Source of the DNA: Sedimentisphaerales bacterium
GTDB taxonomy: Bacteria; Planctomycetota; Phycisphaerae; Sedimentisphaerales; SM23-30
Assembly: GCA_963666285.1 (NCBI GenBank)
Contig: OY762711.1
Strand: one strand, 5' to 3'
DNA: 64,000 nt
Within the stretch, counting starts at the first letter, position 1; each line of letters starts with the position of its first letter. The notes under the pieces are model-generated. The model ran no database searches and was not told the DNA's origin. It saw only the letters and a list, made by a program, of their open reading frames with translations. Of the stretch, positions 2,431-36,416 are shown one piece after another. A program made the position numbers and the translations under genes.

Positions 2431-2810
2431 AGTTAAGTATAAAATAAAAATGTAAGTAAGATGTCGCTTATATAAGTAAAAGGCAATAGGTAAAGATTAA
2501 GATGTTGCTGACGCGAGTTTTTAAACGGCTAACGCCGAAACGGTTGACCACGAAACGCGAAAAGAAAATACAGGTCCTCAGATACTCGCTGATATTCGCA
2601 AATGATTAGAATACAAATTTCAAAAAGTTTTACCACGAATCCATCTAAGTCGGATAAGTTTGCAAGCTAAAATATAAAAGAGCTGAACCACGAATAAGCT
2701 ATGGTAACCGGAGCCTCCCGGTTAATTCAGGATCGAGTATAATATAATACGACGTCCTATTTTAAACGTGCTCGAAGCACAAACAATAAACCTTATTGGA
2801 GGCCCCAGTT

Positions 2811-3854
2811 ATGATTAAGTATATCGGATTAGATATGGATAGCAAGAAAACAGTTTCAATGGTATATGAAAATGGTACAGAGAAGTACGCGACATTACCT
2901 CCTGACATTGGCAGTTTGCAAGATTTTTTGATAAAGCATAAGTCTAAGAAGAATAAGGTATTTGTGGCGTTTGAGGTTAGCGGTTTGGCCGGTTGGATAT
3001 ATGATCAGATAGTTGACCTGGTGGATGAAGTGAAGGTAGTGAATCCCACCAAAGCTACCTGGATATATCGTACCAATAAGAAAAACGATCGAATAGATGC
3101 GCGTAAGATGGCAATTTTGTACAGTATTGATGAATTGCCAAGTGTTTATATGCCAGATAAGGCGGTAAGGCAATGGCGTCAGATGATATTGCATCGCCAG
3201 AAGACGGTACGTAAAGTTGGTCAGACCAAGAATCAGATAAGAGCGTTGATAAAGAGCAATGGCTATTTAGTGCCAGAGCATAAAGGCACCTGGTGGAGCA
3301 AGAAGAATCGAGTCTGGATGGAGAGCTTAACAAAGTCAAAAGAAGATGTACTGTGGAGTCTTCAGTTGGAAGATTTACTTGAACAGTTAAAATTACTGGA
3401 GAATCAAAGAGATAAGATAACAGCCAGACTGGATGAGAAGATAAAAGATAATCCTGGAGCTGAATTATTGATGAGTATTCCCGGGGTTGGTCCAAGGACA
3501 GCTGAGGCGATGCTTGCTTATACAGATGATATAGACAGGTTTAGTAACTATAAGCAATACAGTGCCTACTTTGGCTTAACGCCAAAGCTGGATGAGAGCG
3601 GTTCGACTCGCAGATTGGGACATATCAGCAAGCATGGTCCGCAGGTAGTGCGATGGGCATTATGTGAGTCAAGCTGGCGTGTTGTGAGGTTTTGCCCGGC
3701 GATAAGGCAGTTTTATGAGCGGGTCATGGCCGGTCAGGACGGCAGGAAAAAGATAGCGATAGTTGCGGTAGCACGTAAGTTAACATCGATAATGAGAGCC
3801 ATGTTGAAGACAGGCGAGATGTTTAACGCAGAAATGATAAATCAGGCTGCATAG
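2811..3854 (+). CDS. IS110-family (DEDD) transposase/recombinase
   Basis: YIGLDMD...AFEVS...KNDRIDA (DEDD RuvC-like), SIPGVGPRTA, GLTPKLDESGS, AIVAVARKL. GGAGG RBS at 2798-2802 precedes ATG 2811. Confidence 0.95.
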   Translation: MIKYIGLDMDSKKTVSMVYENGTEKYATLPPDIGSLQDFLIKHKSKKNKVFVAFEVSGLAGWIYDQIVDLVDEVKVVNPTKATWIYRTNKKNDRIDARKMAILYSIDELPSVYMPDKAVRQWRQMILHRQKTVRKVGQTKNQIRALIKSNGYLVPEHKGTWWSKKNRVWMESLTKSKEDVLWSLQLEDLLEQLKLLENQRDKITARLDEKIKDNPGAELLMSIPGVGPRTAEAMLAYTDDIDRFSNYKQYSAYFGLTPKLDESGSTRRLGHISKHGPQVVRWALCESSWRVVRFCPAIRQFYERVMAGQDGRKKIAIVAVARKLTSIMRAMLKTGEMFNAEMINQAA

Positions 3855-4225
3855 AAGACAATATAATAAAGGCTGAGCGACTATGCCGTAAGATCCCGGT
3901 GAATGTCAATTGAAGTTTAAGTTTACTTAAAACCTCGTCACGAAGAATGGGAGTTACGGTCTGTATAAAGTTTAATGTGCCGCCGAATAAGGTGAGTACG
4001 AATAGGAGGTTAGGTCGTTGAATGCCTGCCAAAAGCAGCTCAGTTAATAAAATATGAGGCCTCTGCCTCAGCTCAAAAGCTAACAGGGTTAGCCCCTGTA
4101 ACTTCTTACGCCATCGGCATCAGCCCATGTTTGGGTGAGAGCTGACGCCGAGGCGACGAAGCTACAGGGGCAAAAACCCAGGAAATTTGATAAAAATGTA
4201 AAAAAGAAGAAAAACAACTTGAAAT
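3855..4225 (+). ncRNA. Candidate bridge/seek RNA region in the right non-coding end of the IS
   Basis: About 370 nt with no credible ORF. Long hairpin at 4092-4171 (GCCCCTGTAACTTC...GAAGCTACAGGGGC) and TGAGGC/GCCTCA hairpin at 4055-4070. IS1111-group elements are known to encode their guide RNA downstream of the transposase. Confidence 0.6.
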
Positions 4226-4479
4226 GCTCCGGTTCATAGGATGGACACGAATTCACACCAATAATATATAAGTGACTCGCTACCGCTCGTGTTTAATTAA
4301 TAATAGTCTAATCTATTTATTAATTTATAAGCAAGTAGAATTCCCTATATTTTCTTATACATAAAATACTCCATATCAAAAAGACATTGTTCGGTTTCGG
4401 CTTTACACTCATATTTCAGTTTGATGAAAAAATAAGTTAACATGCCGACAATTGACCGGTTGAGATGCCAAAGAACTGA

Positions 4480-4800
4480 ACCACGGATCCGCCTGAGGCG
4501 GACAGGTTCACACCGATGCACACTGATAAAGAAAAAAATGGAAAGCGATTGGCAGATGAGCAGTAGAATAGAAAAAGGAAAGTTGCAGGCCAGGGAAATT
4601 TTGTAATAATTTATCTCTCGCAGAGGTCGCAAAGATCGCAAAGTTGAATACTACAAATAGAGAAAGTTTCTGCCGCCCTAAAGGGCTTTGGTTGTTTAAT
4701 TAACTTGTTTCCAGCGTTTGACGTTCCGGGATATATCATACCATCCCTGCGGGTTGCTGCCGAGCTCCGCCTGAGGCGGATTTCATTCAGCTCGGCGTTT
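4480..4800. repeat. Cluster of REP-like palindromes and 9-10-bp tandem repeats
   Basis: TCCGCCTGAGGCGGA at 4488-4502 and 4766-4780, with a degenerate copy TCCATCTAAGTCGGA at 2640-2654. TCGCAGAGG-TCGCAAAGA-TCGCAAAG at ~4618-4643. Confidence 0.6.
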
Positions 4801-34670: not shown

Positions 34671-36416
34671 TTGGCAATATTGATGTCAGGTAATCAGGCA
34701 ATAGCCCGTGGGGCATACGAAGCAGGTATCAGCGTAGCCAGCGGTTATCCAGGTACCCCTTCAACGGAAATACTGGAAAACGTGGTACAATATAAAGATA
34801 CCCTGTATTGCGAATGGGCCCCGAACGAAAAGGTAGCATTCGAGGTAGCAGCTGCGGCGGCTATCAGTGGTGCACGATCAATGGTAACAATGAAACATGT
34901 CGGCCTGAATGTCGCAGCGGACCCGCTAATGACATTGGCATATACCGGCGTCGAAGGCGGCTTTGTAGCTATCGTGGCAGATGACCCCGGTATGCATTCC
35001 TCCCAGAACGAGCAGGACAGCCGTAATTACGCCATATTTGCCAAAATACCATTACTCGAACCATCAGACAGTCAGGAAGCAAAAGACTTTATCAAGCTGG
35101 CTATGGAGCTTTCAGAGGAATTCAAAACCCCAGTAATCCTGCGTACAAACACCCGTATCAGCCATTCAAGGACGCTGGTTGAGACAACCGAGCGGAGCGG
35201 AGAACGCAATGCAGATTTCCAGAAGGACCCGACAAGATGGGTACCAGTCCCATTATGGGCCCGAGAAATGCGTGTAAAGGTAGAAGAGCGTCTGGGAAAA
35301 CTCCGAGAAGCCGCGAATAAATCTAAAGCTAACCGTATCGAATGGCGTGACAAATCACTTGGTATCGTAGTAAGCTCAATTTCATACCAGTATGTGCGTG
35401 AAGTATGGCCGGAAGCATCAGTATTGAAACTTGGATTTTCATATCCATATCCGGACGACCTGATAAAAGAATTTTCAGCCGGAGTAGATAAATTACTGGT
35501 AGTCGAAGAGCTAGACAGTCTCATGGAAGAACACATCCGTTCAATCGGGATAGATTGCATCGGTCGAGATTTTATACCAGGCATAGGTGAACTATCTTCA
35601 GACAAACTACGTCAATGCCGAGCCAATATGGAAGGTCAGAAAGCTCCGGAATACCCAATCGGCGAATATGTATCAGAACTGCCTGCCAGGCCACCGGTCT
35701 TATGTCCGGGCTGCCCACATCGCGGTGTATTTTACGCATTAGGAAAACATGATGTAGTAGTCACCGGCGATATTGGCTGTTACAGCCTGGGCGCATTTAA
35801 ACCGCTGTCACGTCTTGACACTATTCTATGTATGGGCGGCGGAGTATCAATGGCACACGGTATGGACAAAGCCGGTGAAAAACGCAAAGTAGTAGGCATG
35901 GTCGGCGATTCGACCTTTTTCCACTCAGGTATAACCGGACTGCTGAATATCGCTTACAATAAGGGAAATTCAACCATATTTGTTGTGGATAACCGTACAA
36001 CAGCTATGACCGGACACCAGGAACACCCGGGAACAGGGCTAACCCTGCAGGGAGAGCCAACCGTGGAAGCATCGATAGAAGAAATCGGTAAAGCCTGCGG
36101 CATCAAGCGAGTTGTAACAATTGACCCATATGACATACCGACCACCATGGAAAAAATTTCAGCCGAGCTGGAAGCAGAAGAAGCATCACTAATAGTTTCA
36201 AGGGCGGCATGTCCGCTGCGTCATCGACCTGTAGTTGAGAAGGTATTCCAGGTTGACCAGGATGCATGCGTCAATTGCCGAATGTGTACAAAAATCGGAT
36301 GCCCAGCGATTGACGGCGGCAACGACAAACCCCAGATTAATGATGTGCTTTGTATCGCCTGCGGTATCTGCGAACAAATATGCCCGAAAAAATGCATCAA
36401 ACTCAGCGATAAATAA
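34671..36416 (+). CDS. iorA: Indolepyruvate:ferredoxin oxidoreductase alpha subunit
   Basis: GYPGTPSTEI, KHVGLNVAAD, HSSQNEQDSR, RPPVLCPGCPH, GDIGCY, GDSTFFHSG, C-terminal 2x[4Fe-4S] motifs. Confidence 0.96.
   Translation: MAILMSGNQAIARGAYEAGISVASGYPGTPSTEILENVVQYKDTLYCEWAPNEKVAFEVAAAAAISGARSMVTMKHVGLNVAADPLMTLAYTGVEGGFVAIVADDPGMHSSQNEQDSRNYAIFAKIPLLEPSDSQEAKDFIKLAMELSEEFKTPVILRTNTRISHSRTLVETTERSGERNADFQKDPTRWVPVPLWAREMRVKVEERLGKLREAANKSKANRIEWRDKSLGIVVSSISYQYVREVWPEASVLKLGFSYPYPDDLIKEFSAGVDKLLVVEELDSLMEEHIRSIGIDCIGRDFIPGIGELSSDKLRQCRANMEGQKAPEYPIGEYVSELPARPPVLCPGCPHRGVFYALGKHDVVVTGDIGCYSLGAFKPLSRLDTILCMGGGVSMAHGMDKAGEKRKVVGMVGDSTFFHSGITGLLNIAYNKGNSTIFVVDNRTTAMTGHQEHPGTGLTLQGEPTVEASIEEIGKACGIKRVVTIDPYDIPTTMEKISAELEAEEASLIVSRAACPLRHRPVVEKVFQVDQDACVNCRMCTKIGCPAIDGGNDKPQINDVLCIACGICEQICPKKCIKLSDK

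Follow-up and report, generated by a model that had tools for sequence, protein, structure and literature searches.

The window analysed here, a stretch of 64,000 nucleotides from the genome of a Sedimentisphaerales bacterium (6.35 Mb in 4 contigs), carries near its beginning an intact element of approximately 1.5 kb that encodes an IS110-family recombinase (Table 1). Both Pfam domains of the family were found in this protein and its NCBIfam match scored 217 bits against a cut-off of 140. The residues D8, E55, D93, D96 and S263, which represent the DEDD/Ser signature of IS110/IS1111 recombinases, were invariant in all 37 aligned proteins. The ATG at 2811, preceded by a GGAGG motif, is most likely the start of the coding sequence, in place of a TTG at 2796. 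Upstream of the element, positions 1-2430 of the window contain a long AT-rich ORF with Cys-pair motifs (784 aa from the first start, open at the window edge), for which neither Pfam nor NCBIfam gave a match.

Table 1. Positions in the window of the element, its predicted guide RNA and the two halves of its target
Feature	Position	Strand	Remarks
Left target half, first decamer unit to junction	2686..2693	+	ACCACGA at 2687-2693; same in 3/4 copies, ACCACTG in the fourth
IS1111-group element, 1547 bp	2694..4240	+	Four copies with identical ends; ends conserved in homologs
Left subterminal inverted repeat	2699..2714	+	ATG-type start at 2701, 7 nt from element end
IS110-family recombinase, 347 aa	2811..3854	+	PF01548 and PF02371; NF033542; RBS GGAGG at 2798-2802
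Predicted bridge/seekRNA, two internal loops	3872..4036 (limits approximate)	+	Single fold and 34-sequence consensus
Right target guide (predicted)	3903..3910	+	Pairs with top strand right of junction; +1 and +6 mismatched at the window site
Left target guide (predicted)	3937..3945	+	Same sense as left flank; CACGAA exact
Right donor guide (putative)	3969..3974	+	Would pair with element left end, one G:U
Left donor guide (predicted)	4000..4008	+	ATAGGA at 4002-4007 matches element right end and core A; nearly invariant
-35 hexamer TTGAAA (predicted)	4219..4224	+	In the predicted circle, 17 nt ahead of TAAGCT (2695-2700)
Right subterminal inverted repeat	4226..4239	+	Last base of CAT at 4237; 3-nt extension
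Right target half, AT and decamer units 2 and 3	4241..4262	+	Start of a module of ~60 bp

The organization of the element is that of the IS1111 group. Its subterminal inverted repeats, which are imperfect (14 bp pair with a 2-nt gap), leave extensions of 7 nt on the left and 3 nt on the right, the non-coding region is long at the 3' end (386 nt at the right end vs 117 nt at the left end), and all four genomic copies occupy a single type of site in a single orientation without target duplication. The arrangement of IS621-like elements (IS110 sensu stricto) was not found, as the predicted RNA lies in the right end and subterminal repeats are present. Joining of the two ends would bring together TTGAAA and TAAGCT at a spacing of 17 nt, which likely represents a junction promoter; among 51 rows, duplicates counted, 48 have a TTG-type hexamer at a distance of 22 nt from the right end and the other 3 have it at 23 nt. 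The circle junction was absent from four sets of DNA contigs, a form of data that drops rare forms, and a motif search revealed no non-autonomous copies and no orphan guide RNAs of the window element. The hairpin-rich segment behind the guide RNA (4059-4176) has a stand-alone, intergenic copy that is 74% identical and carries no guide loops (contig C4, 42547-42660).

A two-loop guide RNA was predicted downstream of the recombinase gene. Folding of the single sequence was not significant (z -1.27); an alignment of 34 sequences yielded two hairpins with large internal loops and compensatory changes in 20 of 36 pairs. Both target guides lie within one unpaired loop that is closed by covarying stems, and the second loop corresponds in sequence to the ends of the element itself. 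The guide for the top strand precedes the guide for the bottom strand, which is the order found in IS1111 elements. No credible Rfam match was obtained.

A preliminary description of this DNA had stated that deletion of 2694-4240 joins three in-phase 10-bp units and that an AT dinucleotide sits at both junctions (2694-2695 and 4241-4242) with nothing longer duplicated; both observations were reproduced. A BLAST search of the region against its own genome identified four full copies with identical ends and the same repeat class at their flanks, as that description would predict. These copies are located on contig C1 at 2394583 (plus strand), 5026696 (plus strand; the window copy), 5746179 (plus strand) and 1590951 (minus strand); they encode recombinases that are 100% identical, and at the DNA level the other three show 0, 1 and 10 differences from the window copy. 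All four copies interrupt a CACnnAT decamer array at its first junction, three in ACCACGA/AT/GGACAC and the fourth in the variant ACCACTG/AT/GGATAC. In the contigs, depth over the element was ~4-5x that of its flanks (100-119 vs 23-27, from two sequencing runs that possibly represent the source sample), which fits four copies.

The reconstructed 30-mer occurs uninterrupted once in the genome, at C1 4811852, where it is followed by the same ~50-bp module, and a 29-mer and a 14-mer of this target are intact twice and five times, respectively; the ~60-bp module that begins at 4241 recurs at at least 12 other places. An isogenic empty allele of the window locus was not found, the empty-site joint being absent from the contigs of the sequencing runs and an ortholog of the window locus giving no match in three genomes of the same genus. 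The intergenic DNA around the element (2500-2690 and 4262-4800) is a patchwork of short multicopy modules, in which extra decamer units lie near 2549, 2632, 4480 and 4510. A palindrome found there (4488-4502 and 4766-4780) has dozens of copies in the genome.

The three copies with near-identical flanks could represent one insertion that was copied together with its repeat module, or recombination between IS copies, in which case fewer than four independent events would have occurred. These copies have ~17-25 bp of left flank and 35-50 bp of right flank in common, and the missing isogenic allele, which neither the contigs nor the three same-genus genomes provided, also leans this way. Nevertheless, we consider such copying unlikely, because the flanks of the three copies diverge outside the module, this module is also present without an insertion, the flanks of the fourth copy are unrelated and one of the copies carries 10 differences. 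In addition, homologs elsewhere were found in the same repeat class; of 30 distinct loci with both flanks, 17 pass a phased-unit pattern (a count made with no chance control).

Homologs were collected by a genome search (6 of 61 genomes of the order contained the element clade) and by profile scans built from the alignment. Loci L001-L064, with 46-100% identity, were kept and L065-L112, with 28-37% identity, were left out; when genome contigs were scanned, the profile from the alignment gave loci and a single-protein scan of the same contigs gave none. The loci derived from genomes belong mostly to Planctomycetota, chiefly Phycisphaerae and Sedimentisphaerales, together with one Clostridia and one Dehalococcoidia bin, and viral contigs yielded one remote match. 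At E<=1e-90, the clade was found in 0 of 400 phylum-wide genomes, among which the top candidates alone were scored; the clade therefore looks confined to relatives near the order Sedimentisphaerales. A quick tree was restricted to the window-element clade, from which L018 and L048 (stops) and L030 and L063 (too short) were excluded.

Across these homologs, the guides vary together with the DNA into which the elements are inserted. The left guide matched the left flank with a score of 4.90 vs 4.00+/-0.13 in permutations (n=36), and the right guide matched the right flank with 5.34 vs 3.69+/-0.13 (n=38); 0 of 20,000 permutations reached the observed score in either test, although permutations ignore kinship and short-read assemblies can yield chimeric flanks. 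The right-guide test used 38 of 45 loci (7 were dropped for want of an anchor or flank) and took the best of 3 registers for matched and permuted pairs alike. When the left guide was moved through 140 offsets, the score peaked at the guide itself (z 7.9; next 2.8), and the signal came from positions -5 to -1, with none at -7 and -6. As read by eye, guide and target shifted jointly on about ten separate branches of the quick tree (L004, L015, L019, L022, L040, L049, L052, L054/55, L059 and L060). Other homologs use related units (CATGAAG, CAGGAT and GCGCAAAG), L059 uses an 8-mer array, and L040, L054 and L055 sit in a GAGATTGC site, which we take to be a REP-like repeat. At L047 (positions 95-140), two element copies follow each other, the right end of the first being 8 nt ahead of the left end of the second, as expected either of two insertions at neighbouring junctions in one array or of an assembly path.

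The junction dinucleotides suggest how little sequence is common to both partners. They differ between the left and right ends in 8 of the 32 loci for which both ends are available. An AG at the left junction and a C in the donor guide occur together (5 of 5 such guides); the loci with left AG comprise 6 in one clade plus L049. Although chimeric assemblies could blur this pattern, the second base probably follows the element at the left junction and the target unit at the right junction. Therefore, the shared core is probably 1 nt, the A of AT alone.

The earlier proposal that the element is programmed against this short tandem-repeat family is thus supported, as the guides match the target and covary with the flanks; the match is imperfect. 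For the window element, the right guide matches 4 of 6 positions of the usual site. That site reaches 10 on a simple 13-point pairing score; among 1.9 million sites, 352 score at least this well, of which 98 outscore it and are all empty. The fourth site reaches 7.5 of 13, a value that is equalled or exceeded at 35,256 sites. The pairing score was consequently rejected as a predictor of the sites used. Two empty hairpin sites with an AG core, near C1 913358 and 5650216 (coordinates after excision of the four copies), match the left guide at 9/9 nt and the right guide at 5/6. Among the 68 first junctions of arrays in the IS-excised chromosome, those with AT-GGA were occupied in 4 of 16 cases vs 0 of 52 for the others (Fisher p=0.002, for a grouping that was picked after the sites were known); this occupancy agrees with the guide, since its C at +2 predicts it. 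A seed of the form CACGA-A[TG]-N-GACA occurred 10 times in the IS-excised C1, 8 of these within the repeat, and 75 of 94 loose sites fall inside ORFs. Selection against genic insertions, insertion at half-matched sites or a determinant in the sequence context could contribute to the choice of site.

It is possible, though on the whole we doubt it, that the guide narrows the choice and that a second determinant, such as a flanking DNA structure or a read-out by protein, as is reported for ISPpu10, or strong survivor selection, then picks the sites. This would refine the guide-RNA model and not replace it. Such a determinant would account for the better-pairing sites that stay empty and for the poor pairing of the fourth site, and both a target stem-loop requirement (bioRxiv 10.64898/2026.03.19.712850) and half-match insertion (bioRxiv 10.64898/2026.08.31.748434) are reported in the available parts of these preprints. 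On the other hand, a clear hairpin in the 60 nt upstream was predicted at only one of the four occupied sites (-8.2 kcal/mol, vs -2.4 to -3.2 at the others), and filtering for intergenic positions by itself removes most alternative sites. Moreover, a copy of a second IS1111-type family (family A) was found inside a CRISPR spacer that holds just ~29 nt of the repeat, which indicates that, for family A at least, a short linear site can be enough.

Taken together, these data make it very probable that the predicted two-loop guide RNA directs the recombinase to the first junction of the dispersed CACnnAT decamer tandem repeat. In a cycle modelled on those of ISEc11 and IS621, the element would form a circle, and its joined ends would create the candidate promoter from which recombinase and RNA could be transcribed. 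In the target loop, the 5' guide would pair with the top strand to the right of the junction and the 3' guide with the bottom strand to the left, and the donor loop would pair with the circle junction. Strand exchange would then insert the element in one orientation without duplication. The anatomy, the copies, the uninterrupted target and the covariation of both the guides with their targets and the RNA structure were directly established; we infer expression, circle and catalysis from the related elements. The arrays are intergenic and numerous and hence likely serve as a niche in which insertion costs little; the pattern is probably made sharper by selection against genic insertions.

The target is a direct tandem array without the palindromic stem-loop of REP-type repeats. 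Triple CACnnAT arrays occur 21 times in the genome vs 0 times in one block-shuffled copy of C1, and 38 of 44 triple CRCnnAT arrays are intergenic under a crude ORF mask. Repeat modules that are shuffled around the same ACCACnnAT junction in the genome (seen by eye) might suggest that the element produced the repeats or left them as footprints, and that they did not exist before it. This is highly improbable, because the element ends are unlike the repeat unit and triple arrays were detected in 52 of the 61 genomes searched in the order (reverse-read control near 0), compared to 6 of 61 with the element clade. The arrays, therefore, do not depend on the window element.

The same repeat is used by two further, unrelated IS1111-type families in this genome. 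All 9 copies of family A, whose recombinase is 34% identical to that of the window, lie in the ACCACGA start of the repeat (C1 909158, 915191, 714620, 716664, 3250366, 3961309, 4025431, 4653138 and 6011329), and all 3 copies of family B (23% identical) lie in the same ACCACGA start, inserted from the opposite strand and with a TG core (C1 3804332, 5397443 and 6012128). This convergence of 12/12 copies on the target of the window element was established from the flanks of all copies. The repeat has also been sampled by a type V-A CRISPR-Cas locus (L168; C1 3242372-3250735) in which Cas12a, Cas4 and Cas1 were recognized by NCBIfam. Among the 13 spacers of its array, two are copies of the decamer repeat. 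The first has matches of 18-19 nt in chromosomal arrays, and a 1.57-kb IS110-family element, the family-A copy mentioned above, splits the second. A third spacer of this array matches C1 5307714 at 25/26 nt.

In relatives, the arrays are associated with genes encoding GxxExxY proteins (PF13366). At 30 such loci (L114-L143), a forward array was found upstream in 20, an inverted array downstream in 16 and both in 14, compared to reverse arrays upstream in 0, forward arrays downstream in 5 and a value of 1.6 in shuffles. The upstream and downstream units match by locus, with a sharing of inverted 7-mers of 6.47 vs 1.56; direct sharing was raised too (4.47 vs 1.48). A unit seen beside GxxExxY genes is matched by 34 of 45 left guides when wobble is allowed, a count with no control. 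GxxExxY genes bracketed by locus-matched 9-10-mer arrays look like small mobile cassettes with their ends. PF13366 had no match in the present genome, and the idea that element copies adjoin such cassettes was not supported, as 0 of 89 flanking frames at homologous loci match this family; the elements thus mostly use orphan arrays. Decamer arrays flanked 0 of 9 four-helix-bundle genes of this genome.

We tentatively suggest, while regarding the idea as more doubtful than not, that the CACnnAT/CAnnnAG 9-10-mer arrays form the ends of a mobile cassette system, so far undescribed, around GxxExxY (PD-(D/E)XK-like) genes. IS1111 bridge recombinases may have converged on these ends at least three times in one genome and adjust their guides when the unit drifts, much like IS1111-attC elements on integron cassettes. 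As n units in one array would provide n-1 targets, elements could stack there and may shuffle the modules. A literature search found no paper on arrays that bracket GxxExxY genes. The element by itself would be unsurprising to specialists; the stronger lead is the repeat, which is widespread and linked to GxxExxY genes, serves three unrelated elements as a target and was sampled twice by the host's Cas12a array. The ~45 orthologs, with 46-68% identity and matched guides and targets, constitute a natural reprogramming series with probably a 1-nt effective core, and could be useful for deriving IS1111 pairing rules and as a source of orthologs for bridge editing.

The RNA-guided mechanism has been known since 2024, and the window element represents a new clade of IS1111 seekRNA/bridge elements. 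The sections of Siddiquee et al. 2024 (PMC11187229) available to us describe the same IS1111 features (7/3-nt extensions, long 3' non-coding region and guide order) for ISEc11, ISKpn4, ISPst6 and ISPa11. The likeness to these elements includes a DEDD recombinase of ~340-350 aa, subterminal repeats with those extensions, a top-strand guide 5' of the bottom-strand guide, absence of target duplication and natural reprogramming; their junction promoter has a predicted counterpart in the window element. In the same sections, ISPa11 targets REPs and ISKpn4 and ISPst6 target attC; the window element differs in its target, a non-palindromic 9-10-bp tandem repeat, in its planctomycete host and in its imperfect inverted repeats with a 2-nt gap. 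IS621, which inserts in REPs (Durrant et al. 2024, PMC11208160, as far as this source was available), and IS622 (ISCro4; Perry et al., bioRxiv 10.1101/2025.05.14.653916, likewise available in part) resemble it in the two-loop RNA with target and donor guides and in the catalytic serine. Sequence matches to them are remote (PDB 9t56, E=4e-19; 8wt6, E=5e-17) and, in the parts of these sources at hand, they carry the RNA at the left end, with the guides in reverse order, and have CT as a 2-nt core, compared to probably 1 shared nt in the window element.

The known IS110/IS1111 targets include REPs, attC sites, transposon ends and linear sites, judging from the available portions of PMC11187229 and of Tobes and Pareja 2006 (PMC1525189). 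Neither this repeat nor the use of short tandem arrays by IS110/IS1111 elements was found described in a literature search conducted mostly at the level of abstracts, with ISfinder and key older papers outside its scope; the words 'tandem' and 'heptamer' have 0 occurrences in the available portion of PMC1525189. The target family is, apparently, unreported. The conceptual novelty is modest, since dispersed intergenic repeats such as REP and attC are already a known habit of the family: ISPa11, ISPpu9, ISPpu10 and ISRm19 are similarly specialised on a dispersed multicopy intergenic repeat, but the REP targets described in that portion of PMC1525189 are palindromic, whereas the target of the window element is direct. 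Among described repeats, the closest analogue is the TAACTGA heptamer direct repeat (MacGregor 2015, PMC4679880), which, in the part of that paper available, forms short intergenic arrays of 2-6 units of unknown function; it differs from the decamer repeat in its 7-bp period and its occurrence in other phyla, and this part has 0 occurrences of 'Planctomyc', 'decamer' and 'transposase'. By comparison with these systems, the window element adds short direct tandem arrays to the palindromic repeats and attC sites known as natural targets of RNA-guided IS1111 recombinases.
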